Shown piece by piece: positions 17,246 to 47,900 of a stretch of 64,000 nt of DNA. This DNA is from Nemertoderma westbladi. Taxonomy: Eukaryota; Animalia; Xenacoelomorpha. How positions within the stretch are numbered: position 1 is the first letter of the stretch; each line of letters opens with the position of its first letter. The stretch is taken from assembly GCA_032718475.1 (NCBI GenBank), contig JAUCBJ010000577.1, forward strand, positions 1 to 64,000, read 5' to 3'. The notes beneath the pieces were generated by a model, which made no database searches, had not been told where the DNA came from, and was given only the letters and a program-made list of their open reading frames with translations. The position numbers and the translations under genes are program-made.

Positions 17246-17631
17246 CACAGAAACTCTTTGCTCAAGATAATAACAATTATTACAAAATAAATAGCTAACA
17301 TTCATTCCAATCATTTTATATAGAATATCTAATCGTTCAAATTATCGAATATTAGCTACAGTAGTATAAAAATGGGATGTAATAAAAATTATAAAAAAGT
17401 TGCTGGGAATATAACTTTTTAAAAATGTTCCCGCAATTTGTTGCTGGACTTTTCACACACAGAAACAAGTTGCTGAAATTTATTGCTGGAATGCTCACAC
17501 ACAGAAACAAGTTTCGGAAGCAAGTTGTTGCAACTTGTCGCTGAAACTTGTATGACATTTATGTGAAGCCTCATTTTGTTTGTACCGCCAAATGGTGACT
17601 TCTGCAGTAAATACCCAACAGGGAGGTCCTA

Positions 17632-21745: not shown

Positions 21746-22199
21746 CTAAAGAATCACGATTAAATACTCAGCCAATCATTTTGGATAAACGCAAGCTGTC
21801 TTTTAGTCTGGCCCCTTATAACATTGCTGCTTGTCATTTAGATGTAATTACCCTTTGCTCGAGTAGTGAGTTTGACTGGTTCCCAGCTAGGCAATTGCCC
21901 TGGCCCATGCAATCAGGGAGCTAAAAGTATAGGGTGTGGAGTGGTGGGGCATTTTATAAGTTAATTACGTTTAGATCAATTAAAAACACATTTCTTAAAA
22001 CAAATCACTTGAACTAATTTAAACTATAATGGAATGGGGTATGGGTATTACAGCTATATAATGTTTAAGTATAATAATTATTTAAATCATAATAATGCTA
22101 GAAAATAATTTATTTCCATTAAAGGGCTGGCAGAAAAATGCTGTTTTTTTTTACCGTAATCAACTAATTAACTGCTATTATCTTAGCTTCTCGAAGGCC

Positions 22200-25273: not shown

Positions 25274-25536
25274 TAATCTAATGTTGAGGTAATTATCAAT
25301 AATTATCAAATATAAAATACAATTTATTATAACAATAAACTTTAATATTTATTAGAACTTATCTATTAGTTATTCTTACTGCATACTGTTTACAAATATA
25401 TAAATCAAATTATTAACTCTAAGGATCTCACTAGCAGATCAATCAAAATCTTTTTTCCTTCAGTACCGGTAGTTGTTATTATATAATCAATAATAAAAAG
25501 TCTTTTTACTAATCAAACAAAATACAGTACACTATA
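25274..25536 (-). repeat. Gypsy 3' LTR
   Basis: Direct repeat of 30282-30543. Confidence 0.93.
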
Positions 25537-28500
25537 CCACCCCCCGTATAAGATGTGGAGCATCAGTTATTTTAAAATAGCATCTTGATTTTTCTTTATT
25601 AAAAGTAACAGTCTTTTTGGGTTTTTTTATATCACGTTTACTGTTTGTTAAAAAATGTTGAGCTAAATTAACAGCGTTGTCTAGCAAACGTGTACGAATT
25701 TTGAAATAATTACAATCGAATTTGGAAATTTGTAACTTGTTTACAAAATCAGTTCTATTGGTAGCAAAATATCTAACAGGTAAGGCGTTAGCTGGACAAA
25801 TATTTCCGTATATTTTTGTATTCTCGGGTAATATTAATCCAGGCCAGGGTGGATAGTTTTTACTTTTTCCTATTATGACGTCATCAGTTCGTACATCGGA
25901 ATTTCCATTAGATCTTTTGGATAGAATTGAAGTAGGTTTAGCTTTATCTTGTTCTCCTCGATTAGTTAGTAGTTTTTGTTTTACCTGAGTAATTCCAGTT
26001 GTGATTTCTTTTCTCTGTGATTCATTTATGACGAATGCAGGTTTTGTACGATCGATAGAAATTTTCTCATGGTATTTTTTCTTTAACACAGTGATAGTTT
26101 TATCGTCTCTGTCCAAAACTTCAAATGGACCAGAGTAACAGTCACTTAAAGTTGATTTCTTTCTGTCGTTTCGTATCCACACGTGAGTTGCTTTATGTAG
26201 TTCCTTAGGAATATATGTTGGTGCTGTGTGTTTGCGTTCTGGAGCAGCAAATGAGTTTATTGTTTCAAACAAATTGTCCATATAATTCGGTAAATATGCT
26301 TCAGTTTCATTCTTGGAAGAAGGAATTAGGAATTGTCCAGGTAGGTCAATGGGTCCGCCATAGACCATTTGGGATGGACTATAACCTTGGCAGTTCACTG
26401 ATGCGCGCAATCCTAAAAGGATTAATGGCATTGTCTCTGACCAGCTGCGATTTGTTGAAGCATGTGCTCTTAGAGCATTTTTCAATGTGCGATGGAATCT
26501 CTCCACGGCTGAATTTGACATCGGGTGGTAAGTTGTTGTTCGTTTGCGATTGATGCCTAATTGTCTCATTAGTTCTCCCCACACAGTGGACTCAAATTGA
26601 GTTCCTCGGTCGGAAATTAATTCTCTAGGGACTCCAAAACGACTAATCCACGCAGTAATTAGGGCGTTTGCTACTGTTTCTGTATCAATTTGCTTTACAG
26701 GAACTACTTCGGGCCAGCGTGTGAAGCGGTCAATGATAGTCACCAAGTGAGTAAAATCCTTTGAGGGAGGTAATGGCCCCACTAGGTCTATGTGAATGGT
26801 ATGGAATCGATCTGTTGTAGGTATTGTACCAATAGGAGATTTCGTATGTCGCACAATTTTGCATTGCTGACACCTAAGACATTGGCGGCACCATGTTCGT
26901 ATATCTTTACTCATACCTGGCCATACATGTTTCTCTGCAATGAGTTTGATTGTTGCCCGGTGCCCCAAATGTGCCAGATTATGATGTTTCTCAAATGTTG
27001 TGAAACGCATACTTGTTGGTAAATAAGGACGTAAAGTTGACTTTTCTTCATTACACCAAATGAAATTGTCACCCACAGGTATCTTCTTCAATGGTAGCGT
27101 TGTGTTCTTAAAGAACTCTTGCAGTGAAGTATCAGAGTTTTGGGCTTCGACCAGTGACTCATCACATGTAGTAGTTATGGTCAATAAAGATCTTGATAAC
27201 GCGTCAGCTACTATGTTGGATGAACCAGCAATGTGCTTTATAGTACAATTGAACTCAGATATAAATGAAATCCACCTTGTTTGCTGTGGTGTTGGGTTTT
27301 TCATTGTGAGCATGTCAATCAATGGTTTATGGTCCGTTTTAATCACAAAATCTGTACCGAGTAACCACGGGAAGTGTTTAAGTGATAGGTAAATGGATAA
27401 TAATTCTCGATCGAAAGTAGATTTTCTCGATTCATTGGAACTAAATTTCGCAGAAAAGAATCCTAAAGGTTGTTTGTTGTTGTCTATAATTTGATGAAGA
27501 ACTGAACCAGCTGCTACATTGGAAGCATCTGTTGTAATTTCGAGTTCCAATTTAATAGTCTTTGTGTTTGGAAATGCAAGAACCACACTATCTGTAATAG
27601 CTATTTTCAGTTTATTAAAAGCTTCCGTTTCATTGTCACTCCAATTTAATGTGTTATTGCTTTTGGATTTTCGATCTCGCGTCATGTCGGTTAAAGGAGC
27701 AGCGATTCCCGAGAAATTTGGAACAAATCGGTGATAGAATCCTGCCATGCCTAGCAGGCGTTTGAGTCCTTTAATGGAGGTGGGTTTTGGGTAATTAACA
27801 ATTGCCTCAACTTTCTCAGGTAGTGGTTTGATGCCTTCAGCTGAAATGTGGGCACCTACAAACTTTACACTGCTGCAAAAGAAAATACATTTTTCTTCTC
27901 GTAGTCGTAAACCAAATATATTTAAACGATGTAATATGGAGTCTAGATGTTGTAGATGTTCTATGGGATTTTTGCTAGCAACCAATATGTCATCTAGATA
28001 TACCCAAGCAAAAGCAATGTCTTGTAAAACTGTATCCATAAGACGTTGAAAAGTCTGAGAAGCATTTCTTAGTCCATACGGCATTCTCCGAAAAATATAC
28101 AAACCAAATGGGGTAATTACAGCAGCTTTATGTTGATCATCTTTTGCTATTGGTATTTGAGTGTAAGCAGATTGTAAATCTAATTTGGAAAATATTGTAG
28201 AACCATGTAGAGCACCTGGTATTTCGCTTAAATTCGGCATAGGATATCTATCCGGAATTGTCTGAGCATTTAAACCACGGTAATCACCGCAAGCGCGAAA
28301 AGGTGTTGTTTTCGAGTTTGGTTGTGGAACCATATGTAATGGTGATGCATATGGGGATTCACCACGGTAGCATATACCTTGGGATTCCCATTTAGCAAAT
28401 ACCTTCTTTGCCTCATCCAAACGTTCGCCAAAAAGTCGTCTGGCTTTAAAATGGGATGGATGTCCAGTAGTGAGAATATTATGTTCTATATCATGTTTAA

Positions 28501-29074
28501 TGGGTTGGAAAATATTTACGGGTTTAAATATGTCTGGGTATTTGTCCAAGAGGTCATTAACCTTACTGTTGAACTCTTGATTTTCTACTGTTATTCTTCG
28601 AATTGTTGGTGTTAATTGGATTTCAGTTTTATTAATTTGCTTCTCATTTGACTTGCGGTTGGTTGTATCTTTGTTTTGTGTTGGATCATTGCTGGAGAAT
28701 GTTATATCATTTAGAGGAATTAATCGATTGTTAGTGCAATCTACTAGAAGCTTGTGCTTTGCAAGAAAATCTGCCCCTAGTATTGGTTGAGGAATGTCTC
28801 CAATGTAAAATGTCCAGGAATAGAGTTTATTATTAACATTGGGTAAAGTAAATTGTAGTTTTTCTATACCAATGACGTTTATTTCAGTTTGGTTGGCCGC
28901 TTTTAATATAATGTTTGGAACTGGACGCATATCGGAAGTAGCATATTGTGTAGGCAGTACACTAACTTCACTACCACTATCCGCTAAAAATTCTTTTACA
29001 AGTCCAGTTGCGGTCACATATATAGCGTTGACTCCATCACCAGCCGCTCGAGTGGTGGAGTCTATCAGTTTCCC
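25532..29074 (-). CDS. pol: Gypsy Pol (protease, RT, RNase H, integrase, C-terminal PWWP-like domain), likely via -1 frameshift
   Basis: FLADSGS, YASPLHMV, YLDD, TDAS, HNLAH..CLRC, HIDLVGP, SDRGTQF, ERFHR, GPF; G GGA AAC slippery site at 29068-29074. Confidence 0.95.
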   Translation of the reverse strand, partial: GKLIDSTTRAAGDGVNAIYVTATGLVKEFLADSGSEVSVLPTQYATSDMRPVPNIILKAANQTEINVIGIEKLQFTLPNVNNKLYSWTFYIGDIPQPILGADFLAKHKLLVDCTNNRLIPLNDITFSSNDPTQNKDTTNRKSNEKQINKTEIQLTPTIRRITVENQEFNSKVNDLLDKYPDIFKPVNIFQPIKHDIEHNILTTGHPSHFKARRLFGERLDEAKKVFAKWESQGICYRGESPYASPLHMVPQPNSKTTPFRACGDYRGLNAQTIPDRYPMPNLSEIPGALHGSTIFSKLDLQSAYTQIPIAKDDQHKAAVITPFGLYIFRRMPYGLRNASQTFQRLMDTVLQDIAFAWVYLDDILVASKNPIEHLQHLDSILHRLNIFGLRLREEKCIFFCSSVKFVGAHISAEGIKPLPEKVEAIVNYPKPTSIKGLKRLLGMAGFYHRFVPNFSGIAAPLTDMTRDRKSKSNNTLNWSDNETEAFNKLKIAITDSVVLAFPNTKTIKLELEITTDASNVAAGSVLHQIIDNNKQPLGFFSAKFSSNESRKSTFDRELLSIYLSLKHFPWLLGTDFVIKTDHKPLIDMLTMKNPTPQQTRWISFISEFNCTIKHIAGSSNIVADALSRSLLTITTTCDESLVEAQNSDTSLQEFFKNTTLPLKKIPVGDNFIWCNEEKSTLRPYLPTSMRFTTFEKHHNLAHLGHRATIKLIAEKHVWPGMSKDIRTWCRQCLRCQQCKIVRHTKSPIGTIPTTDRFHTIHIDLVGPLPPSKDFTHLVTIIDRFTRWPEVVPVKQIDTETVANALITAWISRFGVPRELISDRGTQFESTVWGELMRQLGINRKRTTTYHPMSNSAVERFHRTLKNALRAHASTNRSWSETMPLILLGLRASVNCQGYSPSQMVYGGPIDLPGQFLIPSSKNETEAYLPNYMDNLFETINSFAAPERKHTAPTYIPKELHKATHVWIRNDRKKSTLSDCYSGPFEVLDRDDKTITVLKKKYHEKISIDRTKPAFVINESQRKEITTGITQVKQKLLTNRGEQDKAKPTSILSKRSNGNSDVRTDDVIIGKSKNYPPWPGLILPENTKIYGNICPANALPVRYFATNRTDFVNKLQISKFDCNYFKIRTRLLDNAVNLAQHFLTNSKRDIKKPKKTVTFNKEKSRCYFKITDAPHLIRGVV

Positions 29075-30219
29075 GGTGTCTTTCTCCCCCCAGCAATCTC
29101 TGGGTCCCACTGGCAGTTTTCTCCCATACACTTAGTAGCATTCTTACCGAATTTCCAATGGTACCAACAAAATTTTCCATCAGGGTTGAAGGAACGTGAT
29201 TTGGAACGAGTTTGGCGGTAATCTCTTGGAGCTGATGGAGATCTCGAGGCGGAATATCTTTCTCGACTGTTCCCTGGATTACGACTCAATCCTCGTGAGC
29301 GATCGTCTTGAGTGGATAACCGGTTGATGGCATGGGTTAACTTGGTCATTTGCTGTGTGATATTACTGCACCAGAGTTCCATGGGGTATCCATCGGCTGC
29401 AGTGGCGCCTCCAGTTGTAGTTGTGTTGTTTGGATTAGGCCTAAACGTAGAGGTGTGGTTGATTGGAACTGTAACACTGTTTACATTGACTGGGCTGGTA
29501 TATATTTGTTCAACCATACGATCCGCAATTTCAGCGAGTTTTTCGGTTGAGATTCCATCAATTGATATTAGCGCTAAACGGACAGGTTCGGGTAAAATCT
29601 CCAAAAATCGTAGTTTAACTATGTTTTCGTTATGCGGAGCTAAACGTAACAGTTGTCTCAGGGCGACGGAGGGTTTGCGGTCGCCAAGGGTTTGATCCTG
29701 GAGCAGCTTCTTTAGTCGTCGTTCCTCACTGTCGTCAAAAAATTTTATTACACTGGATTTTATAGTTTCAAAATTATCGGAAACATGTACGCCGCTGTCG
29801 AAGATTACATTTGTTGGTAGGACTCTTAGCAGACTGTTTTTCATAACTTCTTCGGATGAGTTAGAGAGGATTTGTTCGATTTGATCAAACCAGATCCTTG
29901 AATCTTTTTCGTAGAAGTTCGGTAATTTCACCGTAATTGTAGTCGGATTCGGGATTAACGATGGGTTGCCACCAACGTGGGAAGGAGGTTTAGTTAGAGT
30001 CTGTTGGACGTGATTGAAAGCTAATTGAATAACGGATGGAAGTTCGCTATTAAGAGCGTCGAGGAGGTCCTGTTTAGTGGATGGCATTCCAGCAAAGTTG
30101 GGATCGTCTTGATGGATTAATTGTAACATGGCTTCTAATATAGCCTTGGGTTGGTTGTGTAAGTCTGGCATTATGATTATACGGTACCGGTCAGCCGGTG
30201 CTGATCTTCCAATTATCAC
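29065..30219 (-). CDS. gag: Gypsy Gag
   Basis: VKLPNFY..WF.QIE, LGDRKPS, CWYHWKFG.NA.KC..C motif; overlaps pol frame; true ATG probably near 30171. Confidence 0.92.
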   Translation of the reverse strand: MIIGRSAPADRYRIIIMPDLHNQPKAILEAMLQLIHQDDPNFAGMPSTKQDLLDALNSELPSVIQLAFNHVQQTLTKPPSHVGGNPSLIPNPTTITVKLPNFYEKDSRIWFDQIEQILSNSSEEVMKNSLLRVLPTNVIFDSGVHVSDNFETIKSSVIKFFDDSEERRLKKLLQDQTLGDRKPSVALRQLLRLAPHNENIVKLRFLEILPEPVRLALISIDGISTEKLAEIADRMVEQIYTSPVNVNSVTVPINHTSTFRPNPNNTTTTGGATAADGYPMELWCSNITQQMTKLTHAINRLSTQDDRSRGLSRNPGNSRERYSASRSPSAPRDYRQTRSKSRSFNPDGKFCWYHWKFGKNATKCMGENCQWDPEIAGGRKTPGN

Positions 30220-30281
30220 TTCGGTACACAGTTTTGTAGTAAGTTTTTTTTTATCTCAGTAGTTCGACGTCTGGGTCACCA

Positions 30282-30543
30282 TATATAATGTTGAGGTAAT
30301 TATCAATAATTATCAAATATAAAATACAATTTATTATAACAATAAACTTTAATATTTATTAGAACTTATCTATTAGTTATTCTTACTGCATACTGTTTAC
30401 AAATATATAAATCAAATTATTAACTCTAAGGATCTCACTAGCAGATCAATCAAAATCTTTTTTCCTTCAGTACCGGTAGTTGTTATTATATAATCAATAA
30501 TAAAAAGTCTTTTTACTAATCAAACAAAATACAGTACACTATA
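30282..30543 (-). repeat. Gypsy 5' LTR
   Basis: Direct repeat of 25274-25536, adjacent to PBS. Confidence 0.93.
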
Positions 30544-31892: not shown

Positions 31893-32991
31893 ATTCTATG
31901 TTTGTTTAGGGGTGTATTATAGAAAGTAGGGTTCCAGAATTTTTCAAATTATCAAGTACCTCAGATACTAGCAGACAGCTGATACAAATTTATCCAACCG
32001 TTTGTTTCTCGGAATACAAGAAATAGTAGGCCTATATATTTGTAGGCCTATTATTCTCAGACTCAGTGACAATAACAGGTACATACGGAAGGGTATTAAG
32101 GCGAACGCAATCTCATGTGCAAACGAATGATATTAATCTCAAGTTTTATTTTTCTATGTAACCAATAAAATCGAATCATCATAATCGCTTAGTACATATT
32201 TGCCATCATCAATATGCATTTATTTACTTACTATTGGTCCATCCCTTCAAATTCACTTTATACTATATACCTGTATGAACTTGACGATACTTCATAAACC
32301 TACAGAATTAATTATAATAGCGCATTATTATCTAAACATCGCACGTCTATCTTAGTTAGGGACACAACAGTGCGAAATTTCGTCGGATTTCAAACCTCTC
32401 CGCCAAACACTGGTTGGTGGTTCAAGGCTGTATCCACTCGGACACAGCGGACACTGGATGTGCCATGGCGCATGTTGGGTTTAAAACACCCCACATTATA
32501 TCAGATTGAAAGCAGAGCAGAGCTGAAAGCTGAAATAACTCAGACAATGTTTTGCGTTATCCCTGTCTTAATGGCAGAAGATAACCTTACATTTCTTTCA
32601 ATTTACAGAATTAGGCACTTCACGGCTGTACATCTTCATGTTCGGTGACAAGATTGGCCAATAAATCACGGATTTTAATGTTGCAATGTGATCAGACCCT
32701 CGTTTTACAAATTAGCTCATGAACTGTTGCTCAAGTTACAGTGTGAAGACATTTAGATGACGTCCCGAAACCCAGAAGACTTTTTAAAACCAATCCTCAC
32801 ATTCTATTGGCTGAGCTGGGAGCCTGGATCATGCACCCGTGATTTGGGCGTGTCCAAGAGCACCTTTCCTAGGGGTTTCAATTGATTTCATGATAACTTT
32901 AGCTTCTGCTTCAACATGGCAGATGAAATTGATTTTCCAATAAACTATTATCCTTCTAGTCACTACAGATGAATATCTTAAGAACGATAGT

Positions 32992-34599
32992 TGTTGCCGT
33001 TATCCCTACACCAGGGGGAAAAACGCCGATGCTGGAGACGTGACTTAACAGACCACCGAGCCCCGGCCAGTCACCGGATATTGATTGTGGGGAGGGAATA
33101 TTTTCTGAGATGCAAGTTTGCGGTTGATAAAAAGCTGCATTAGTTGGATATACTCTTTAATGTAACTTCCTATAGTTGAAACCTGTTCAACATCATTGAA
33201 ACTTGATTAAGAATAATTTTGGGCTTCCCCAAATCAATATACACCAAATATTCACAATAATTATACACGATAATATAAATCCCTACAGTATATTATTTAA
33301 TAACCCACTGTTTGCTCAGAATTTTAGCCTACCTAATGTTCCCCAGATTTTCCCTCGGTCCCAGTCTTAGTGCCGTAGTGTCGGTGTCGGTCGACCCTGT
33401 CGCGTGTCCGTTCCACCCCTCACGAACCCCGAAGGGAACGATCATCGAGAACCAGCACGGCTTGGCTAAGGGTCGGTCCAGTCGGTAGACTCTGTCGCGT
33501 ATCCGTACCACCCCTCTCGAACCCCGAAGGGTTCGGTCATCGAGAACCAGTACGGCTTGGCTAGGAGTCTGTCGTGTCGGTGGACCCGTTCGCGTGTCCG
33601 TTCCACCCCTCACGAACCCCGAAGGGTTCGATCATCGAGAACCAGAACGGCTTGGCTAGGGGTCCGTCGGTTCATCACAGAAACCCAACCACCTAGGCTT
33701 TCCGAGTCCGTTTCAGGCTCGTAGTCGCTTCGGCAGCCGAGAAACTGCTCCGAACAGTCGGTAGGCCAGTAGAGTCTAGTCGAGTCTAGTCCTTTGTCTT
33801 TCGACCCCATCGCGTGTCCGTTCCACCCCTCACGAACCCCGAAGGGTTCGATCATCGAGAACCAGTACGGCTTGGCTAAGGGGTCTGTCGTCGGTTCCCG
33901 TCGCAAATCCCAGTACAAGCAGTCAGCGTTCCGAGTTCTTTTCAGTCTCGTAGTAGCTGCCGTTGACCAGAGACCGCTAAGGGCAGTTCTCGTCAAACCC
34001 GTCCTGTGGCCAGCCCTTTCGCATGTCCGTCCCACCCCTCACGAACCCCGAAGGGATCGGTCATCGAGAACCAGTACGGCTTAGGTCAGGGGGCAGTCGT
34101 TAGTTGGCCACCCGTTCGCGTGTCCGCTCCACCCCTCACGAACCCCGGGGTTCGATCATCGAGAACCAGAACGGCTTGGCTACTAAGGGGCCGTCGGTGC
34201 CCGTCGCAAATCCCTGACACAAGCAGTCAGCGGTCCGAGTTCTTTTCAGTCTCGTAATGGCTGCTGTTGGCCAGGGACCGCTAAGGGCAGTCCTTGTCCT
34301 TTAGGCCTGGCGCATTACCAAATCCACCCCTACAGGCAGCAGGAAGTTGGCCAGGGCCTAATAGTACTCAGGCTAACCTGAATACTGCTTGCATTTTCCA
34401 TCCCCCCTGGCCCTTATAACTATGAAATTATTCCCGTACCCTGTAAGTTGCCCCAAAGTTCGCCCATAAATCGGCCCCAGTTTATTGAATGTGCCCAAAA
34501 CCCATGGTCCCGCACCCAGTAGTAATATCGGAATAATCAATTTTAATAAAATACAAAAATATTCAACTCGCGTTATGGAAAGTTGAAATACCGCGAACA
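32992..34599 (-). repeat. 3' LTR of BEL element 2 (~1.6 kb), six internal hairpin repeats
   Basis: Direct repeat of 43015-44474; PPT adjacent; left boundary less certain. Confidence 0.88.
33390..34262 (-). ncRNA. Array of predicted structured RNA elements within the LTR
   Basis: Six ~75-95-nt units with CGAACCC-UUCG-GGGUUCG and covarying stems, plus three CGAG..GAAA..CUCG hairpins. Confidence 0.6.
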
Positions 34600-34764
34600 G
34601 TCCCCCCCAATGACCTTCGTGAAGTCTGTCGGTCGATTGAGTTTGCGTAGGTCATTCCCAATATAAAAAACCCAAATTTAATATTGCATAGTTTTTAATT
34701 AATTTGGCCTAGAGTTTGTATAAAAATAAATGTTCGATAAATGTTCCTGGAATATCCCAATCCA

Positions 34765-37365
34765 CTATTTCTTTTTCTGGTACGCCTTTCGTCTCTTCGC
34801 CCGTCGACTCTCATCGATCGCTATGGCTGGTAGAGGAGCGTCAACATCCATTGTGAGTAACGCTTCGGCTTGTCTCCTGGCGGCTCTTCCTTTCGAAGGC
34901 ATCGGGATCATGTCGGTTCGTCTTTCCAACTCGGAGTTGCGTGCCTCTAGGAACCATTCTCCGTCACCGAACTCCTCTTTATACGAGTATAATCGTCTAA
35001 TGACTTCGAATGGGCCGAATAATCCAGCGCTCAGTAGCAGATCCACGTAATGGAAAGGTAGCGTGGCCGACGTGTGGAGGCGTTCCGGGAAGGAGAAATA
35101 TCCGCACGCCATCTCCTGCGCGATATTCCGAGCGTTTCTCCGAAACTTGGTCTTTAAGTGGCTGTTTGCGTATGTCTCAAACATGACCATATTGCCCATA
35201 GCGGTTACGTCTTTGGTAGGACATTTGATATAGCAGCGGGGGCTAGCGGAATGTCCACGGAAACCGCACGTGGTGCAGAGGTTATAAAGGATCGGACAGA
35301 CCGAAACGTCGTGGCCCGATATCGCGCAGTATGGGCAATAGAGTATCCCGAGGAGCTGGAGGCAAGAATCGGTAACCCGATTCCTTCTGCCGCGTGGGCA
35401 CTGCTCCGAGCCGCAGTCGCCGCATACCTCCAACTGCGTTTCTCGACCGGGGAATATCGGAATCGGGACGCCGACGTAGTATTCGAGTCGTCGGTCGCTC
35501 TTCGGAATATTCTCGGTGGTCGGTAGCCCGCGGAATGCTAGGCTTTTGCGTAGTATGTTCTCGCTCCGATAACCCTCTTTGTGTCCCGCTGGTCTCAACT
35601 CGGATGACCGTTTCTGGCGGTGGATCCATTCAGTTTGCTCGGCGTACCAACGGGTTAGTCGCATAGGGTCCTGAGGAACGGCGGGTGTAGTAGCCACCGC
35701 TGGTCGGCGAAGAGGTGCCGGGGTTTTCGACGGAGGGATACCGAGGAGATCGTCGGGTGTCGGCGCATCGCTGGGGCCCTCCTCGACCAGTATCGCTGAG
35801 CGGGTCCGTTGGTGGCTGGTACTCGGAATCTCCGACGACCAATCTTCGCCGCCCGGGAAAGGATACGGGGATAACCGTTGGCATATGTCGCCGAAGTCGC
35901 TCAATGCAGCTGTAGTGGCTACCTCTCTCGCGGGGCTACCGGAGCCGCGTGGGGTGTAGACGCCTGCTCTCTTCATCGGTTCGGCCGAGGCAACCCGTTT
36001 GGCGGCCGGTCCGTACGCGGCCTCCGGCTCGAGTTGTCGCTTCGGGGTGGAGAGTAGAACACCCTCGTTTAGCCATATCTCTTCCCCTTCCGAGGAGATC
36101 AGAGGCTCCTCCGCACCGAGAAGTTCGGTAATCGTAGGGATGTCGTAAGGTCCGCTCTCGTCCCAGGAATCGATAACGGCGGGCGTTTTTGATTCTCCCG
36201 GTGTAATGTTCTCGACCGCTTTAAACGCATGGTTTATAACCTCGTTCCAGTCGTAGTCGACGAAGGAAAGGGGGGCCGCCGTAATAAGGTTATCGAGAGT
36301 TTTACAGATAAACTTAGCGACGGTGTAGCACTCCATAACGACGTAAACGTAGTTCCGTCGATCAGGATTCTCCCACCTTTGGTGTATCGTCCACTTCCGA
36401 TCAACGTCCTTCCATCGACCCTCTCGCTCGCTCTTTATTTCCAATCCCGGGTATCCACCGTATATTTTATTATAGTCCCGGAATTTCTGGGGTTTGAAGT
36501 CGATACCGCCGTTTAGCACAGCGAGGTAGCCGATTCCGGATTTCGTCGGTCTCACTTCTTGGAATCCTCGCATGAATTCGGCGAATCTTAACCAGGCTAG
36601 CAGCGTTTGAGTGTCGATGCAATGGCTAAGTGCGTTGAGGTCGTTTCGTCGGTTTCTTCCTGCGGGAGCGTTCGCGTAGTCGTTCCGGACGTCCGCCTTG
36701 ATATCCGACCCGATTTTAATGACGTCGAAGTCGAAGAGGATCTTTTGGATTTCCGGAGGCAGCAACCAGATCGCTCCGGCTGCCTGCACTTCCTGTCTGG
36801 GTGTCGGGAATATTCGGCACACCAGTACCAAACGATCCAGGGTTCCGAGGACGACGACTAAGGATCGACCATATTCTTTCGCCCCGTACTTTTCCTGGTA
36901 GTCGTCGCGGTTCTGGATAATCGATACGCGTTCCTCTCGAAGCGTCGCCGTACACTCCGACAGGTTTCCCCAGTGGGCGAGGTACGTACTCTTGTCGTCG
37001 ACGAAACTTTGACATCTCGCCAACGTAATCGCTTTCGATGTGGGCGTCGCATTTCCCTCGTTGTCGTAGATCAAACATCGGGATCTGTAGACGCTCTGCC
37101 GGAACGTTTCCCAAAATGACGAATCGTCCCCTCCGGTTGCCTTTGCGTTCCGAGTTCTTTTCAGTCTCGTACTAGCATCGGCTAACCGGAGGGCTCGTAG
37201 ATTCTTAGAATCCGGTCCCTCTCGCCCGGTGAATTTAATGACTCGCACGTTCTCATTTAGCAGGGTGCTCCAATTTGTATCAAAGTCAGGGGATCCGGGT
37301 TGCGAATATTCCAGTAGATCTATCGTGTTACGTAATTCGCCGATAATTTGGCGAACTGGGTCCAT
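34765..37365 (-). CDS. Accessory protein (866 aa): DEDDy/WRN-like 3'-5' exonuclease-like domain, disordered linker, zinc-knuckle module
   Basis: LIYDNEG (ExoI DxE), LPPEIQKILFDFDVIKIGSDIKAD (ExoII), CIDTQ, YVVME (ExoIII, D replaced by E); CPYC-x4-H-x4-C and CTTC-x4-H-x5-C; uninterrupted ATG-TAG ORF. Confidence 0.8.
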   Translation of the reverse strand: MDPVRQIIGELRNTIDLLEYSQPGSPDFDTNWSTLLNENVRVIKFTGREGPDSKNLRALRLADASTRLKRTRNAKATGGDDSSFWETFRQSVYRSRCLIYDNEGNATPTSKAITLARCQSFVDDKSTYLAHWGNLSECTATLREERVSIIQNRDDYQEKYGAKEYGRSLVVVLGTLDRLVLVCRIFPTPRQEVQAAGAIWLLPPEIQKILFDFDVIKIGSDIKADVRNDYANAPAGRNRRNDLNALSHCIDTQTLLAWLRFAEFMRGFQEVRPTKSGIGYLAVLNGGIDFKPQKFRDYNKIYGGYPGLEIKSEREGRWKDVDRKWTIHQRWENPDRRNYVYVVMECYTVAKFICKTLDNLITAAPLSFVDYDWNEVINHAFKAVENITPGESKTPAVIDSWDESGPYDIPTITELLGAEEPLISSEGEEIWLNEGVLLSTPKRQLEPEAAYGPAAKRVASAEPMKRAGVYTPRGSGSPAREVATTAALSDFGDICQRLSPYPFPGGEDWSSEIPSTSHQRTRSAILVEEGPSDAPTPDDLLGIPPSKTPAPLRRPAVATTPAVPQDPMRLTRWYAEQTEWIHRQKRSSELRPAGHKEGYRSENILRKSLAFRGLPTTENIPKSDRRLEYYVGVPIPIFPGRETQLEVCGDCGSEQCPRGRRNRVTDSCLQLLGILYCPYCAISGHDVSVCPILYNLCTTCGFRGHSASPRCYIKCPTKDVTAMGNMVMFETYANSHLKTKFRRNARNIAQEMACGYFSFPERLHTSATLPFHYVDLLLSAGLFGPFEVIRRLYSYKEEFGDGEWFLEARNSELERRTDMIPMPSKGRAARRQAEALLTMDVDAPLPAIAIDESRRAKRRKAYQKKK

Positions 37366-37904
37366 ATTTACGATTATATCCGTTACAAATTAGTTCAGTT
37401 AATTATAAGTCCAGAAAGTCTGAAACTATAGCGATAGCAGAATAATTCAGTTTTTTATTTAATTCAGTTTATTAAATAACATTGCTATATAGGCATCTAT
37501 CATCTTATTGCTAATACATTCAGCATTTACAGTTACTATAGCTATACATGATATCCAACCAGTTTTTTATGACTTTTTTGTCCTTTTTTTTCCAATTCTT
37601 TTCTTTGACCTTTTTTATACCTTTTTTTTGTCTTTTTTCATTTCATTATTATTTCATCTCATTTCATTTATTTCCACATATATTTCAACATTTATTTCCA
37701 CCATTTATTTCACATTTATTTATTTATTTCCACATCATCATTGGGTTTATAGCCCCCCGGCTATCATCATTGTTATAAGCGCAGCACCAGGGTGCGCATC
37801 ATTTCATTTTCATCAGTATACGCGTCATCATTCAGGTTTATAGTAGAGTTGTCTGATCCTTTTCATCGTTTCCAACTATATTCAATCATTTTCTTTGGTT
37901 AATC

Positions 37905-38340
37905 TTTGTCGTGGAAGGGGTGTTACGCGACAATCTGGGATCTACAGCTGGACTCGTTACACCGCCTACACCCCAAACTGCGCACGTAACGGACAATGAA
38001 GACGCTAGGAGTGAAGTCACGTGGATGCACCATGGACCCACCAGAATAACACTCCCAACAACATAAAGCTCAGTCGACGAAGTCATGTGGGATGGGGTTA
38101 CGCAACATTCTGGGATCTACAGCTGGACTCGTTACACCGCCTATGCCCCAAAATCCACGTAACGGTCCCACCAGAATAACGCGACTGAGAAACATAAAAC
38201 CCTCTATCGTCGAAGTCATGTGGATGCACCATGGACCCACCAGAATAACGGGATAGAGGGGGTGTTGCGCGGCAATCCGGGATCTACAGCTGGACTCGTT
38301 ACACCGCCTACGCCCCGAACTGCGCACGCAACGGACAACA
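37905..38340. repeat. Three ~170-bp composite repeats upstream of the accessory ORF
   Basis: GGGATCTACAGCTGGACTCGTTACACCGCCTA x3; GTGGATGCACCATGGACCCACCAGAATAAC x2 plus a partial copy. Confidence 0.85.
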
Positions 38341-38611
38341 TAACATACTGCAATGAATACAATGAATTCCACTTCAAATCTTTTCCATTTCCAATAATCC
38401 AATATCGTAGGTCCTGATGACCAAAATCAGGGTAAACTAAACATAAACGACCCTGCGTCAGTCGAAACATCTGCAGGGTGACGCTGGACTCCACATAACA
38501 CACGAGGAAACACAAATACCATTGCGTGGTTACAGTTGGTTTAAAGGGGGTCCATAATTCGTTGTCGATAAATCACAGTTTTATAAGAGTTTGTCAACAT
38601 GATGAGAAGGG

Positions 38612-39140
38612 TTACATGGGTTTGTAATTGTCACCAATGTCCACAGCAGGATCTTGAGTAGGGAACTTATCACCTCTTGTAGAATCACCACTGTCATTGC
38701 CTTCAAGAAGGCACAGCTTCTGGATAGGGCGTTGGTAGTGGCCCTTTGCCGTTCGTATCGTCACAGTCCTCGCAAGTCCGTCTTTGCTTGGGTGTATGGT
38801 CACGACCCGCGCCACAGGCCAGTGAACGCGGTCTTTGAGATCTTCTTTAACTAGTACCATGTCGCCAACTGCGACATTCCGGTAGGTGTTGTTCCATTTC
38901 CTCCTGGTCCGGAGGGTTATGAGGTACTCCTGGGCCCAAATTCTCCACCAATGCGCTGCCAACGCTTGGGCCTTTTTCCCGTTTGTATGTTTCGCGATCT
39001 CGCTGGGATCCGGGAACATGGTCTCTGGGAGAATGTGGGTTTTGGGTCTCCCCAGTAGGTGGTTAGGAGTGAGGGACTCAACTGAGGCGTTCGCCATCCG
39101 GGTATTACGGCAGATTAGTCCGTGCTCTCCCGTTAATGGT
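38612..39140 (-). pseudogene. Integrase C-terminal (DUF5641-like) remnant
   Basis: LTPNHLLG, WWRIWAQEYL..L..R.KW, GDMVLVKE, WPVARV, DGLARTV, RPIQKLCLL; out of frame with gag-protease. Confidence 0.85.
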
Positions 39141-42100
39141 GTCAATGTTATCAACGTCATTATTATCATCAACAATCTTATTAGCCACCCAAATCATGGG
39201 TACGCGCCAATGTCCGTCTTTGAACGTGGCCTGATCAAAAATGTTGGTACAATATTGATCTTCCTCGGACGGATTCTCGTCCTTCTCGGCAAACTCTCGG
39301 GTCTCCACATTAAAGCATCCGGTCATCTCCCGCTGGGTTCTCTCGGTTTCGAGAAATAAATCCTCATCGAGGTCTGTAGCTGAGCAATATCCCACGGAGG
39401 TTACATTCTCTTTAATCTGACATTTAGGAAGGTAGGTATAGGTGTCCGTAGTTTCCTCCTTAATGCCGCAGAGTGTCCATCCCATTATTGTTCGTTCAGC
39501 ATAAAATCCATCATCCTGGTTTATAGATCGAGCGATATCTCCGGTGGGGATGTGTAGTTCCGGTGTATCAAGTCCGATCAGTAGGGTGATACGGTTCACG
39601 TCCAACTGCGGACACCTCAGGTCTACATCGTCTCGGTCCAATTGTATGAGGGGGGCGTACTCGGCTGATTGTCGGAACCGCACCCGGAGGTCTGTGTGTA
39701 CCAAGGCGTTCTTGATGGTTAACTTAGCCGTTTCGTAGCCCTTCATCACTCCTTCCATCTGGAGTTGTACCTCCCCGGACTCTACTTCTCTGTTATCGGT
39801 GATGGTTTGTATGGGCCGTTTACAAGGTTCATATTCTAGGCCGAGTTGCTCGAGGAAGTCCCGGTCGATGATGGTTCCGTCAGACCCGTTATCGAGGAAC
39901 GCGAGTGTCGTTAAAGATTTGCCGACTCCTTGGATCCTTACTGGGATTACCTTTGCGAAAACCATGTAGCGGCGATTTATAAGATTAATCGTGGCCGAAA
40001 TATTGGTTACTTGTGGTGTATCGGTGGAGATTTTAAACGGGTTGGTTTCTCTCCGTTGGGTTGTCCGGGTTCCTTTGAAGATGTGGTTTGTTTCTCCTCT
40101 TCGCCTGGCTTCGATCCGAAAGGGGAGGGTAGTAAAATCGAAGTTCGCAGGGATGTGGAGGAGCGTGTGATGGCGTTGGTCGTTACAGACAGTACAGCAT
40201 GATCTTTGGTCGCACTCCCGAACATAGTGACCTGTTCCAAGACACCGGAAGCATCCTCGGTGTTTCATTATCGCCTCGAAGCGTGGGACGAGTTCGGCGA
40301 ACTGAAACTTTCTGCAGAATTCCACTTTGTGTTTCTCCCCACAGAAGAGACAGAGCAGGGAATTTGTGACGCCTTCCCTTTCGGGTGCCCAACTCGCGAG
40401 ATAACATGCCCATTCCTCGGCGGATGTCGGTTCCTCGTAGTCTTCGTCGTCGGAATCCTCGGCCATGGTAATGGCCATCGTACTTATCGGTGGGGGGCGG
40501 AATCTCGGTTTCGGAGGGGTTATCTTACTCCTGGAGTTGCTCTCTATTCCGTCCAACTTTGCGAGACTTTGTTTTGAAAACATCGAGTCATTCATGGCTT
40601 CGGAGATATCGTCCAGGAATGCCGACATTTCAAGGAAGCTAGGATCTCGATCTGGATGTCTGCGCCGGAGATCTACACATTTATAAGCCCACTTACTTTG
40701 TAGCCATCCGGGGAACTTCTTGGCGATCTGTCGGAGGTTTAGAATGTTGTTCACCTGGTCCTCCTTATTTAAGGGTTTCAGAGTATAATAGGCATCTTTC
40801 ATAGAGTCGGAGAATTCCTGTATGTTCTGTGGGTCCCCTAGTGATCCCGCGTCCTGTATCAGTCTCTCTAGAGTTTTATTAATTATAGTTCCGGTATTTC
40901 CGTATCTTTTGTCTAGAGTTTTCCATGCGTCATAGTATGCCTCATGAGAACCTCCTTCAAAACATGCAACAATTCTGCGTGGTTTGTCACCCAGGTATTG
41001 CGATAAATATACCAATTTCTGTGCGTCGGCTATGTCCGTTGATCCAATCTGCGCAAAGAACCGTTTCTTGAATCTGAGGTAATCGACGGGATCTCCTTCG
41101 AAGGTGCGAATCTCCATCTTCGGCATGGCAAGGCGGTTCTCCAACGCCCGGATGATGCTGACGTCATCTGAACTGGAGTGACTCGGAGGGTTATAGTTAT
41201 TGGCACTCACTCCCATTCTTGATGGATCAATAATAGGCGGAGTTTTAATAATGACGCGGCTGCGAGTTTGTGGTGTTGATGTAAATGGGTTGTTTGATCG
41301 GGGAGTGGCGTCCCGTTCCGAGTCCTTTTCAGGCTCGTACTTGGGTACACTCGCTGTCGTGGTGTTGGATGGGAAATAGGGTTCCTCATTCTTTAGCGTA
41401 GCCGGTGGGGGATGAAACACCGGAGCTTGTGCCGATAGCGTAGACTGTTTGGTAGGCGGGATCTCGAGTTTCGGAGGTTTCGTCACTGTTGGTGTAAATG
41501 ACTTTTCTAACTCCGGTATCGGAATTGGTTCATATTCCTGATCTATATCCCTTTCCCAGTCCTCGTAGAGTTGAATATCTCGTTCTATAAGTGCGGCCTC
41601 GTATTCCGCCAGTTTCGCAATATCTGCATTCTTTTTGTGAGTGAGAATCGCTTGGGCCTCGGCGTGTTGTTTACGCATTTCTGCTTCCCATTTACGTTGT
41701 TCGATCTCTTGTTTGGCCTCTCGTTCATGTTGTTCGATCTCTCGTTTGGCCTCTCGTTCACGTTGTTCGATCTCTCGTTTGGCCTCTTGTTCACGTTGTT
41801 CGATCTCTCGTTTGGCCTCTTGTTCACGTTGTTCGATCTCTCGTTGGGCCTCTTGTTCACGTTGTTCGATCTCCTGTCTGACCTCCTGTCTGCGTTGTTC
41901 GACCCGTCGTTCGACCTCTTGTTCGGCCTCTCGCTTTTGTGTTTCGGCGGCTAATACATCTTGCTCGGCTTGCAGTTGAATATACTCATCTTCCATCCGA
42001 GCTTTGAGGGCTAATGCCTTCCGTTCTCGCAGTTGGTCTCGGAGTGGCTGACCCCCTTGAGAGCTATGCGCTGAGCCGGATCTCTCGCTCCTAGCGCTGG

Positions 42101-42575
42101 AGTGCTGATTTCTAGCGGACCCCGTTCTTTTTCGATGTACTGCCGTCCTGATGCTGGAGGATCGTACTGATTCCGCGTCCGTTCTTTCAGCCCTCTGGTA
42201 GTACTGTTCCTCATAGCCTCTCACAAGGCTGAGGGTCCTCTGGTGTTGTTTGCGGAACCCATCTAGATGTACAACGTGTTCTTCCAACTTGGGGTAGTTT
42301 TCCTGATCGGTGGAGGGAACGAGATCTTGGTACGCCTGTATCATTCTTTCGTACCGCTGTAGGATATTTCGGATACTTTGAAGCTGAGTTTGTACCTCAT
42401 TGAGGGGGGTTTTGACTCCCTTGAGTTGTTTCTCCATCCGTTGATACGCTCGGGTTACTCCGCCTTTAAGGGCCCCTAACCGACGGGTCATGTTCTTGAC
42501 ATTTGGTACCTCGTCGGCTTCCGAGTCTGTGTGGTGATCCATCTCGTCGGTATCGGATACGTTATTTGTTGTCAT
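39105..42575 (-). CDS. gag: BEL/Pao Gag-protease (1156 aa), ending where RT should start
   Basis: MPKMEIRTFEGDP..F (DUF1759-like), three Cys/His knuckles ending HHTLLH, AFLDNGS protease, TIMGWTL; 11-aa coiled-coil repeats. Confidence 0.92.
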   Translation of the reverse strand: MTTNNVSDTDEMDHHTDSEADEVPNVKNMTRRLGALKGGVTRAYQRMEKQLKGVKTPLNEVQTQLQSIRNILQRYERMIQAYQDLVPSTDQENYPKLEEHVVHLDGFRKQHQRTLSLVRGYEEQYYQRAERTDAESVRSSSIRTAVHRKRTGSARNQHSSARSERSGSAHSSQGGQPLRDQLRERKALALKARMEDEYIQLQAEQDVLAAETQKREAEQEVERRVEQRRQEVRQEIEQREQEAQREIEQREQEAKREIEQREQEAKREIEQREREAKREIEQHEREAKQEIEQRKWEAEMRKQHAEAQAILTHKKNADIAKLAEYEAALIERDIQLYEDWERDIDQEYEPIPIPELEKSFTPTVTKPPKLEIPPTKQSTLSAQAPVFHPPPATLKNEEPYFPSNTTTASVPKYEPEKDSERDATPRSNNPFTSTPQTRSRVIIKTPPIIDPSRMGVSANNYNPPSHSSSDDVSIIRALENRLAMPKMEIRTFEGDPVDYLRFKKRFFAQIGSTDIADAQKLVYLSQYLGDKPRRIVACFEGGSHEAYYDAWKTLDKRYGNTGTIINKTLERLIQDAGSLGDPQNIQEFSDSMKDAYYTLKPLNKEDQVNNILNLRQIAKKFPGWLQSKWAYKCVDLRRRHPDRDPSFLEMSAFLDDISEAMNDSMFSKQSLAKLDGIESNSRSKITPPKPRFRPPPISTMAITMAEDSDDEDYEEPTSAEEWACYLASWAPEREGVTNSLLCLFCGEKHKVEFCRKFQFAELVPRFEAIMKHRGCFRCLGTGHYVRECDQRSCCTVCNDQRHHTLLHIPANFDFTTLPFRIEARRRGETNHIFKGTRTTQRRETNPFKISTDTPQVTNISATINLINRRYMVFAKVIPVRIQGVGKSLTTLAFLDNGSDGTIIDRDFLEQLGLEYEPCKRPIQTITDNREVESGEVQLQMEGVMKGYETAKLTIKNALVHTDLRVRFRQSAEYAPLIQLDRDDVDLRCPQLDVNRITLLIGLDTPELHIPTGDIARSINQDDGFYAERTIMGWTLCGIKEETTDTYTYLPKCQIKENVTSVGYCSATDLDEDLFLETERTQREMTGCFNVETREFAEKDENPSEEDQYCTNIFDQATFKDGHWRVPMIWVANKIVDDNNDVDNIDTINGRARTNLP

Positions 42576-42763
42576 TGTAACGCCTCGTCGATGGCTAGAT
42601 ACGCGATGTCGTAAAACAGTTCCTCGTAGGTATTGTACTCAGCTTGGACCACCCGAACAGTAATCCTGAATCGTCCAACGTTCGTTCCTTGTACCTCAAC
42701 TTCGACGTGCCAGATTCCTGGCTCAACTTGAATTATATCAATGGGTGTGATCGATACTTCCAT
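42572..42763 (-). CDS. Putative 63-aa upstream ORF overlapping the gag start (ATGA)
   Basis: ATG-initiated, protein-like composition; its TGA overlaps the gag ATG. Confidence 0.45.
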   Translation of the reverse strand: MEVSITPIDIIQVEPGIWHVEVEVQGTNVGRFRITVRVVQAEYNTYEELFYDIAYLAIDEALQ

Positions 42764-43014
42764 TCCCTGTTAACAACTCTCCAAATATGTGATCTGCCGA
42801 CTACGAGTTGGTTAGATCGAGTTTGTTGCTTAATTAAACCACGACTTTGTCTCAACTCAAATACCAGAGTTTCCTCGTAGTGGGTGCTGGCAAGCACGTA
42901 GAGAGTTTTTGAAGAGTATTGAAGGATTCTCAACTTCCACCAGTTGAAGTTGACCGTAATTATCCTTAATTTTGACACCCTGTCAAAATTAACCGCATGA
43001 ATTATTCTTAATTT

Positions 43015-44973: not shown

Positions 44974-47900
44974 TGAGAGCATTCAGTGGATAATATCAAA
45001 GAATAACCTTACATTATTAACGTATCCTAAACTAATAATCGACGTGCCACCGAAACGAGCCCCCGAAGAAGATAATGACAATACAACGGTTGTCCCAGAA
45101 GATAATGGGATTCAATTTGGTGAGTCTGAAACCTGATTATTTTATGAAACTAATTAATTATCACAATTGATTGTCATTTTTTTTATTTTAATTTTTTTCA
45201 ATAAATTCATGCCAACAGCTATCTAGTTTCCATTCCTTGTATAATGGAGTTACCCGAACTCCTGTCTTCGTAACATTAACATTCCATTATTATACTTGAC
45301 TAATATTGGTAATGCAGTTCTTGATCACCCCTTTTAGAATCCACCCTTATATTAGTCCGCATTCGCACTCAAGTCAAAACCAAACATCATGAAGTTGACA
45401 CATTGAAACACTGAAGATGAAATTACAATATTCTATAATAATGATATTTTTTTTAATTTATTATACTTTTGGCTTTTGAATGTTGTGTTTTGACTTGATT
45501 ATCGGAAGCCGGCCTAACATTTAATCCTAAATTGAAAACCAACACTTTGAACGCAACAATAATTAATTTCGAAAATAATCATGTAAAAATTGAATTATCT
45601 TGTTCTCATTTATGTTCTCATATTGAGATACACAGTGTTATTTCAAATAGAAAAAAGCTTTATAATGTTTATTATTAGTTAATATATTTAGTTAATAATT
45701 ATTGTTAATGTAGTTTTTGATGTACTAATGATCCTTACCGGTACCGGTACATTACGTCGCATTACCCCGACCCGAATTTGAACTCAAAGTAATTTTGTAT
45801 TTTTAGGATCCGTTTCATACGAATTTCAAGTTGTGGCTGATATTAGTGTTTCTTGTATGATAGACCCAGGAAACGTAAAGAGCCATCTGGCGGAAGGTTT
45901 ACGCATTGATATTGGGTACATTCAAAACGTGGACGTTAAGGTTTGACATGCTACACAATAATAAATGTACTCGACTGAATAATATTACCTATATTATTAC
46001 TATGCATTATAATATAAAATCAACTGCCCAAAATTTGCTGAGTTGTTTAATGTCTTGTAAATCTGGTTATGTTTTGGCGAAATGAGTGGTGGAACGTTTT
46101 ATTTATATTAAAGCATATTTCTGTCAGATTCCTATGAATGAGAGATTTGTGGTGGAAGTGTTGTACGCCTGCGGATTTCTCAAATTATCCTATAAATATA
46201 ATATATCATTCTATTTTGTTGTTATTTTTAGGTCAAGTTTCTGGCCAGCCGCGAAAGTCTCATAACTGTAGCGTTCACTCTAACTGCACCGGAAGTTGAG
46301 TTAGAAGAACTGGCTTTGAGGACTCACGAAAGCATTAAAAATCAGCAGCTCGAACTTCCTTGCCAGTTGGTGTCTGCACTAGGTTAGCGCACAAGAACTG
46401 CCTTGCCAGTTGGTGTCTGCACTAGGTTAGCGCACTGGAACTGCCTTACCAGTTGGTGTCTGCACTAGGTTAGCGCACAAGAACTGCCTTGCCAGTTGGT
46501 GTCTGCACTAGGTTAGCGCACTGGAACTGCCTTGCCAGTTGGTGTCTGCACTAGGTTAGCGCACTCGAACTGCCTTACCAGTTGGTGTCTGCACTAGGTT
46601 AGCGCACAAGAACTGCCTTGCCAGTTGGTGTCTGCACTAGGTTAGCGCACTGGAACTGCCTTGCCAGTTGGTGTCTGCACTAGGTTAGCGCACTCGAACT
46701 GCCTTACCAGTTGGTGTCTGCACTAGGTTAGCGCACAAGAACTGCCTTGCCAGTTGGTGTCTGCACTAGGTTAGCGCACTGGAACTGCCTTGCCAGTTGG
46801 TGTCTGCACTAGGTTAGCGCACTCGAACTGCCTTGCCAGTTGGTGTCTGCACTAGGTTAGTGCACAAGAACTGCCTTACCAGTTGGTGTCTGCACTAGGT
46901 TAGCGCACTCGAACTGCCTTGCCAGTTGGTGTCTGCACTAGGTTAGTGCACAAGAACTGCCTTACCAGTTGGTGTCTGCACTAGGTTAGCGCACTGGAAC
47001 TGCCTTGCCAGTTGGTGTCTGCACTAGGTTAGCGCACTCGAACTGCCTTGCCAGTTGGTGTCTGCACTAGGTTAGTGCACAAGAACTGCCTTACCAGTTG
47101 GTGTCTGCACTAGGTTAGCGCACTCGAACTGCCTTGCCAGTTGGTGTCTGCACTAGGTTAGCGCACTGGAACTGCCTTGCCAGTTGGTGTCTGCACTAGG
47201 TTAGTGCACAAGAACTGCCTTACCAGTTGGTGTCTGCACTAGGTTAGCGCACTCGAACTGCCTTGCCAGTTGGTGTCTGCACTAGGTTAGCGCACTCGAA
47301 CTGCCTTGCCTGTTGGTGTCTGAACTAGGTTAGCGCACTGGAACTGCCTTGCCAGTTGGTGTCTACACTAGGTTAGCGCACTCGAACTGCCTTGCCAGTT
47401 GGTGTCTGCACTAGGTTAGTGCACAAGAACTGCCTTACCAGTTGGTGTCTGCACTAGGTTAGCGCACTCGAACTGCCTTGCCAGTTGGTGTCTGCACTAG
47501 GTTAGCGCACTGGAACTGCCTTGCCAGTTGGTGTCTGCACTAGGTTAGCGCACTGGAACTGCCTTGCCAGTTGGTGTCTGCACTAGGTTAGCGCACTGGA
47601 ACTGCCTTGCCAGTTGTTGTCTGCACTAGGTTAGTGCACAAGAACTGCCTTACCAGTTGGTGTCTGCACTAGGTTAGCGCACTCGAACTGCCTTGCCAGT
47701 TGGTGTCTGCACTAGGTTAGCGCACTGGAACTGCCTTGCCAGTTGGTGTCTGCACTAGGTTAGTGCACATGAACTGCCTTACCAGTTGGTGTCTGCACTA
47801 GGTTAGCGCACTCGAACTGCCTTGCCAGTTGGTGTCTGCACTAGGTTAGCGCACTGGAACTGCCTTGCCAGTTGGTGTCTGCACTAGGTTAGCGCACTGG

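Follow-up and report, generated by a model that had tools for sequence, protein, structure and literature searches.

A repeated hairpin array with a K-turn sequence pattern in the long terminal repeats of a BEL/Pao retrotransposon from Nemertoderma westbladi

We analyzed a stretch of 64,000 nucleotides of Nemertoderma westbladi DNA (contig JAUCBJ010000577.1, positions 1 to 64,000; hereafter, the window) and found in the long terminal repeats (LTRs) of a BEL/Pao-type retrotransposon an array of six hairpins, each with the sequence pattern of a kink-turn (K-turn), accompanied by two further types of repeated hairpin. The array is a real and unusual feature, although its covariation and its likeness to box C/D RNAs are weaker than a first-pass annotation of this DNA had claimed. 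We favor, with a probability of roughly 0.55, the reading that the array and its companion modules would constitute a multivalent, cis-acting protein-binding platform on the element's own RNA.

The array and its host element

Self-comparison of the window delimited a 3' LTR of 1,608 nt on the minus strand (34599 to 32992), with the ends TGTT..AACA and a G-rich polypurine tract just before it. Its partner, the 5' LTR, lies on the same strand at 44474 to 43015. The placement of the array in an LTR, as originally annotated, is thereby borne out: it sits inside a true LTR and is repeated in the partner copy, where a 148-nt deletion takes out most of the fourth unit and the first part of the fifth. 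Domain searches recovered a gag-protease frame with DUF1759 and an aspartyl protease (39105 to 42638, minus strand) and a C-terminal integrase remnant, DUF5641 (38612 to 39193, minus strand); a candidate poly(A) signal, ATTAAA, occurs at 33156 to 33161 (minus strand). Direct LTRs with TG..CA ends around a gag-pol with DUF1759, protease, and DUF5641, which we take to be domains of the BEL/Pao type, together with matches of the gag-protease to two metagenome loci that both encode Peptidase_A17 (L003 and L004; see below), identify the array-bearing element by sequence as a BEL/Pao LTR retrotransposon. The window's copy of the element is deleted and probably recombinant, since the reverse transcriptase, RNase H, and integrase core were not detected in it and since the 5-nt flanks of its two LTRs differ, so that there is no target-site duplication. 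The coiled-coil part of its gag contains seven 33-nt (11-codon) repeats (41694 to 41924).

Four DNA runs, which come from three studies of a single organism, contain the family of this element in abundance; one of these runs is possibly the window's own source. Across them, the LTR bins are deeper than the ORF3 bins and array copy-number variants are present; some joints skip 433 to 624 nt, and in one contig of the family the array is collapsed by about 715 nt.

The six units, which we designate type A, run along the minus strand from 34192 to 33392, as first proposed, with spacings of 95, 95, 220, 209, and 97 nt, and are 76 to 92% identical to a reference unit. From the upstream end, these are A1 (34106 to 34192; K-turn nucleotide G1b at 34157), A2 (34013 to 34094; G1b at 34062), which is the most diverged unit, A3 (33802 to 33886; G1b at 33853), A4 (33582 to 33665; G1b at 33633), A5 (33487 to 33570; G1b at 33538), and A6 (33392 to 33475; G1b at 33443), which has two U.U oppositions in its upper stem. 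The predicted folds support both the hairpins and their assignment to the sense strand of the element. The K-turn sequence pattern (C at -1b, a GAU bulge, tandem GA/GA, and G at -1n) is found in all six units. Other parts of the description hold for most or half of the units: the cUUCGg loop is present in five but not in A1, whose tetraloop lacks the UU; U.U at 3b.3n is present in four but is replaced by C.U in A2 and C.A in A5; and the 7-bp upper stem is perfect in three and imperfect in the rest.

Of 20,000 dinucleotide shuffles made from a single unit, 21 gave the strict K-turn pattern and 1 gave it together with an inner stem of at least 5 bp. About 140 kb of other DNA contained four unrelated single matches to the strict pattern, i.e., approximately one per 35 kb. 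The six tandem copies are not independent evidence and were counted as one event. We conclude that the pattern is improbable by chance at the position of the array, though not unique. Exact hairpin patterns had no matches in metagenome contigs and none in viral contigs. In folding energy, A1, A2, and A6 are no better than shuffled sequences (z = -1.4, +1.1, and -0.6, respectively).

K-turn register, covariation, and companion hairpins

By its sequence pattern, type A is a standard K-turn: it shares with the standard examples (Haloarcula marismortui Kt-7 and U4 snRNA), as far as the accounts at hand describe them, the 3-nt bulge, the tandem G.A/A.G, and the C:G pair at -1b:-1n. According to the available part of PMC5689011, C:G is the majority value at -1b:-1n, and C:G at 4b:4n is of the Kt-7 type; type A further shares with the k-turns described in the accessible text of PMC5689011 and PMC4382518 a non-Watson-Crick 3b.3n, which in four of the six units is U.U, as in box C/D. 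The kink itself is putative, because a slipped register, obtained by a 2-nt slide along a G-run and comprising three Watson-Crick pairs and a 5-nt bulge, is 4 to 6 kcal/mol more stable than the K-turn register in the Turner model (A1 not scored). The probability of the K-turn closing pair is 0.001 to 0.007 in the three units computed, and no variant separates the two registers. Since the nearest-neighbor model has no term for a kink or a bound protein, and since a natural k-turn that folds only upon L7Ae binding is on record (PMC6298567, in the part available), a protein-induced switch from the slipped register to the K-turn is possible. Type A differs from known k-turns, as covered by the sources at hand, in that its C-helix has two U.G pairs, its slipped alternative is more stable, and its motif is reiterated in a retroelement LTR.

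The full box C/D consensus is RUGAUGA/CUGA, which the units do not have. The designation of the units as box C/D-like is true only loosely, because box C/D k-turns strongly conserve G:C at 4b:4n (PMC5689011, in the part available); strictly taken, it does not hold, in that C:G occupies this position in all six units and there is no guide stretch. A closed hairpin lies between the boxes, with no single-stranded antisense guide before box D/D', and type A is also without the second box pair of the box C/D k-turns in the accounts at hand. The Rfam comparison proposed at the outset, with E values of up to 10 allowed on 32000 to 38500, returned two weak matches, neither of them in the array, and ARAGORN returned none. 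We dropped tRNA, 5S, hammerhead, twister, SECIS, and TIGR-type readings, which found no Rfam support; the inter-stem loops are conserved and are not variable guides.

The first-pass annotation had also described the array as covarying, with compensatory changes in the basal stem (GACUC/GAGUC) and in a CCGUUC/GAACGG stem. Both changes are real, but both occur in A5 alone, and three of the six units are mismatched at the position distinguishing CCGUAC from CCGUUC. Over the six units, 4 of 28 pairs are changed on both sides. The basal stem accounts for three of these, the middle helix for one, and the K-turn for none; there are also five extra Watson-Crick pair types. When the six 3' LTR units were permuted, the extra Watson-Crick types gave p = 0.007 and the paired cells p = 0.018, in tests that ignore relatedness and use a structure picked after the sequences were seen. 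On nine rows, the covariation score was matched by 1 of 500 shuffles; an earlier count on 26 pairs had only two double-sided pairs, a result matched by 29 of 500. The aligned sequences thus point to a modest covariation of type A in which the K-turn itself does not take part.

The core varies less than its surroundings: around the K-turn, the 23 columns at the center show no variation, whereas variation is seen in 14 of the 46 remaining inner columns (post hoc p = 0.002) and in 21 of 29 basal and flank columns. Only 3b and 3n vary within the core, and both stay non-Watson-Crick. An invariant core of this kind would be explained by the K-turn register and the slipped register alike. Within the family, the commonest variants in the upper stem are A-to-U changes with no change in the partner, which open two A-U pairs; in run X1, they amount to approximately 60% and 34% of contig depth. 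The family variant table is confined to three places away from the ends of contigs and omits a change seen in A2 and A5; hence, we did not use it to establish an invariant core family-wide.

Two further hairpin types accompany the array. Type B occurs three times in the LTR among the A units, as B1 (34203 to 34285; z = -3.9), B2 (33899 to 33981; z = -2.6), and the diverged B3 (33680 to 33750; z = -0.4), and once inside the coding sequence of ORF3 (37128 to 37193; z = -6.2), all on the minus strand. It has an apical UGAAA and a UA/GA internal loop, which we presume to be akin to T-loop and loop-E types. Over 32 nt, the ORF3 copy is 97% identical to B2; the apex and internal loop are kept between LTR and ORF3, and the lower stems differ in sequence yet still pair. 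Type C is represented by three hairpins between pol and ORF3 (37920 to 38333, minus strand; cores at 38309, 38142, and 37967). Their apex is the same in all three copies, and double-sided changes affect 3 of 26 pairs; taken alone, the extra pair types of type C are weak evidence (p = 0.07). All 12 module copies tested across the three types fold more stably on the sense strand, an advantage that is partly due to G-rich composition. The existence of three independently repeated structured modules is the best argument for selection on RNA structure. A single-copy structured block (z = -2.2; 34400 to 34300, minus strand) begins the GC-rich part of the LTR, past the TATA-like and initiator-like words discussed below.

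The most serious rival is a neutral history in which template switching and unequal recombination amplified a single stable hairpin and the K-turn pattern is coincidental. The copy number of the array varies freely, the preferred fold is not a K-turn, uncompensated changes are common, the strict pattern turns up by chance about every 35 kb, and the relatives with an ORF3 have no arrays, all of which such a history would accommodate; it would not lead one to expect compensatory changes in three separate module types, an invariant core beside flank and basal columns of which 21 of 29 vary, or a type B apex common to LTR and coding sequence. On balance, we regard a neutral origin as unlikely.

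A candidate self-primer and a DEDDy-like ORF3

No TGG primer site was found downstream of the 5' LTR. Instead, a 13-nt site located 2 nt past this LTR (43000 to 43012, minus strand) is a perfect complement of a stretch of the LTR itself, namely, a candidate self-primer at 33206 to 33218 (minus strand) with its 5' LTR counterpart at 43241 to 43229. A complement of this length was reached by none of 1,000 and none of 2,000 random LTRs from Markov models and at none of 194 decoy sites. The published sequence criterion for self-priming is a complement of at least 10 bp starting 0 to 5 bp downstream of the 5' LTR (PMC6317226, in the part available); with 13 nt beginning 2 nt past the LTR and no tRNA site, the window's element has the Tf1-type arrangement and is a candidate for Tf1-type self-priming in BEL/Pao. 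In these respects, it resembles Tf1/sushi, Tj1, Tcn1, and TAR, and the self-priming groups named in the accessible portions of PMC6317226 and PMC4600332 are gypsy and copia only. The comparison with Tf1, as those portions describe it, is limited in that the primer here may not be the RNA 5' end and in that one, probably recombinant, copy was examined. A second, near-identical primer site lies approximately 40 nt downstream of the first (about 42971 to 42959), with a 12-bp inverted repeat between them, and in the predicted fold it is this second site that would pair with the primer. The two LTRs differ in 15 of 1,246 columns (1.2%) up to the end of the 13-mer and in 26 of 213 (12%) after it, a jump in divergence that is expected if the strand-transfer junction sits at the primer cut.

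The position of the array on the RNA depends on where transcription starts. The TATA-like word noted earlier at 34418 is indeed the sole TATAA(G) word in the LTR and is followed 32 nt downstream by an initiator-like word (34386) and by a 5' splice-site-like word (34377; 7 of 9 positions matching), all on the minus strand; these were judged against what we take to be the consensus words. A start at the TATA and initiator words would place the array in R, at the RNA's two ends, in a 1,686-nt leader with 12 upstream AUGs. If, by analogy with Tf1, the primer is the RNA 5' end, the array would lie in U3 and be present once, in the 3' untranslated region. We lean slightly toward the U3 placement, which would be compatible with a function in RNA, since the genomic RNA still takes in U3 at its 3' end. 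An intron in the LTR, extending approximately 1.1 kb from 34377 to about 33203, is speculative, because the acceptor is weak and falls below the polypyrimidine threshold, and because there is no intron-less LTR joint among the 15 of 21 joints listed. We rejected a primer formed across a splice junction, given that all GT-AG pairs in both LTRs gave at best 10 nt, less than the contiguous 13 nt.

Alignment and fold comparison of ORF3 (34765 to 37365, minus strand; 866 aa) pointed to a putative DEDDy/RNase D-like domain with the candidate residues D101, E103, D225, Y341, and E345. Besides this domain, ORF3 has a linker of low complexity, three CCHC-like knuckles, and a C-terminal block that is conserved. 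Searches against Pfam recovered no match for ORF3, word-indexed protein searches recovered none for ORF3 or protein alignment A1, and a PDB sequence search recovered none for ORF3 or alignment A6; for protein alignment A1, the PDB search gave only weak knuckle, EXD2, and Egalitarian rows (E = 0.008 to 0.2). The atlas score of ORF3 to PF01612 is 0.91, and its top Foldseek hit is EXD2 (E = 0.7; model pLDDT of 44). With the same model, the best rows of a wide structural search included Nibbler, diDNase, Rrp6, PARN, and RNase D (Z = 3.0 to 3.9; rmsd of about 5; 130 to 159 residues aligned); a single-sequence fold reached a pLDDT of 34. An ungapped profile chose D101/E103 as the best window for ExoI (z = 4.0), at the price of an insertion of approximately 50 aa, whereas MAFFT places a gap at this point, so that the motif is missing; ExoIII reads Y-x3-E where Y-x3-D is expected. 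Two metagenome relatives, L004 and L001, retain D-T-E. Together, these comparisons weakly suggest a relationship of ORF3 to the RNase D/DEDDy nucleases. ORF3 is under purifying selection: 21 of 27 listed family variants, drawn from the best-supported 40 of 365 variant rows, are synonymous, against an expectation of 33% (p = 3 × 10−6).

A full HMMER scan recovered seven distant relatives that have in common with ORF3 the N-terminal domain or the CCHC-knuckle C-terminal block, and a metagenome scan with two ORF3 relatives yielded seven loci (L001 to L007); no ORF3 relatives were found in viral contigs. Because BEL/Pao pol sequence lies upstream of the ORF3 match in six of the seven loci (as a long, unbroken gag-pol in L003 and L004, integrase-end matches in L002, L005, and L006, and a Pao peptidase in L007, with none at L001), this type of ORF3 is, judging from these arrangements, a lineage feature of BEL/Pao. 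Repeated hairpins and K-turn arrays are absent from all seven loci, of which only L003 and L004 contain a complete LTR. These two (L003:110-8965 and L004:1-10147) are BEL/Pao elements with an unbroken 2,277-aa gag-pol, a tRNA-type primer site, and LTRs of approximately 240 nt, and their ORF3s, with the full D-E-D-Y-D set, are a clean example of the DEDDy/zinc-knuckle family. In L006, an ORF for a Monjiviricetes-type fusion glycoprotein (464 to 1618; PF24664, E = 4.7 × 10−28) stands upstream of a BEL/Pao remnant that likewise carries a DEDDy/knuckle ORF3.

An RNase D-like ORF in the env position is also described for the bdelloid Juno/Vesta and Terminons in the accessible part of PMC5408684, and the variant ending in E resembles the DEED reported there for bdelloid elements; this is a likeness of ORF type and position. 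The window's element differs from Juno/Vesta in its BEL/Pao membership, its triple CCHC-knuckle C terminus, and its hairpin arrays, which do not figure in that part of the account. The same source treats what DEDDy ORF3s do in LTR retrotransposons as an open question, for which the present element offers a testable cis/trans pair. Our results extend the DEDDy type of ORF3, and probably also self-priming, to BEL/Pao.

Candidate functions of the array

The genomic RNA should carry at least one copy of the array, since the part of the 3' LTR that precedes the poly(A) site can be copied only if it is transcribed. We propose that the hairpin modules, amplified in tandem, would act in cis on this RNA and that the platform of bound protein would license its export, stability, or packaging. 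On binding of an L7Ae-family protein, type A would slide by 2 nt along the G-run, from bulged helix to K-turn, and ORF3, with its DEDDy and zinc-knuckle parts, might read type B or C, a weaker proposal. As domain searches found no L7Ae domain in the gag and ORF3 frames, the partner proposed for type A is a host protein; we consider it possible, though rather doubtful, that a host L7Ae-family protein of the Snu13/15.5K type binds it.

HERV-K RcRE and HTLV-1 RxRE are cis-acting export elements located in retroviral 3' LTRs. The window's element would resemble these and Cer1/CERV of Caenorhabditis elegans (PMC10309623, in the part available) in combining structured LTR RNA with a separately encoded accessory protein, and would differ from them, so far as the sources at hand go, in its short reiterated modules of three types and its DEDDy-like accessory protein, an export role here being argued from analogy. 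The platform would work much as these export elements do, or as the gRNA target of CERV does in Cer1. Were type A to work as a K-turn array, a mobile element would repeatedly exploit, on its own RNA, a protein interface central to snoRNPs and the spliceosome; we found no report in the open-access literature of kink-turn/L7Ae use in an LTR retrotransposon.

The units might instead be precursors of small RNAs, whether transcribed by Pol III, microRNA-like, or snoRNA-like, in the manner of the foamy virus LTR microRNA cassettes. They are discrete 85-nt hairpins, a protein-bound K-turn could halt exonucleolytic trimming, and an A-box-like word, by what we assume to be the A-box consensus, opens five of the six, with a B-box-like word in three. 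LTR hairpins with A/B-box-like words are likewise found in the foamy and BLV cassettes (PMC3993851) and in the LTRs of Cassandra, Helenus, and Ajax (PMC10886601), as the available parts of these sources describe them. However, in foamy viruses and BLV a Pol III terminator sits at the 3' base of the hairpins (PMC3993851, in the part available), whereas the type A hairpins have no such terminators behind them, and unlike Cassandra, Helenus, and Ajax in the account available, the window's element has no tRNA or 5S match and is a coding element, not a TRIM. The region from 34500 to 33133 contains no run of four or more T residues, the gap between A and B boxes is just 14 nt, a common family variant destroys the B-box adenine, the units have no guide region, and neither ARAGORN nor Rfam matches the array; we therefore judge small-RNA precursors quite improbable. 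Slightly less probable still is that the repeats act as DNA, as enhancer repeats (tandem copies of which are usual in U3, where the self-primer-like site may put the array) or, given the A- and B-box-like words inside the units, as boundary sites of TFIIIC type for the LTR promoter, the hairpins being incidental, for DNA motifs predict neither the double-sided changes, the sense-strand-specific G.U pairing, and the cUUCGg loop nor the copies inside ORF3 and the pol-ORF3 spacer.

A more elaborate version of the protein-binding platform would tie these features together: a self-priming BEL/Pao element might coat its own RNA with a host Snu13/L7Ae-type protein through a tandem array of slip-switch K-turns, the array being in an LTR intron that also bears the self-primer, so that only unspliced RNA would be exported, packaged, and primed, while ORF3 would bind the companion hairpins or trim the primer end. 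As a whole, this is a long shot. The hairpins are only approximately 85 nt long, and binding and probing tests of the platform are therefore cheap.

The window contains several other features. A young gypsy-type element (25276 to 30543, minus strand) has 261-nt LTRs that are 99.6% identical, a TGG-type primer site, and an intact pol in which the integrase is followed by a terminal PWWP domain (PF00855, E = 7.6 × 10−7, above the curated cutoff), possibly a chromatin-targeting module. A strongly skewed repetitive block (17495 to 21924) is open over more than 1,300 codons in several frames, and a satellite comprises 58.8 copies of a 43-nt unit (46349 to 48877). An Otopetrin-like coding stretch (PF03189; 54848 to 56491, plus strand) fits an animal host.
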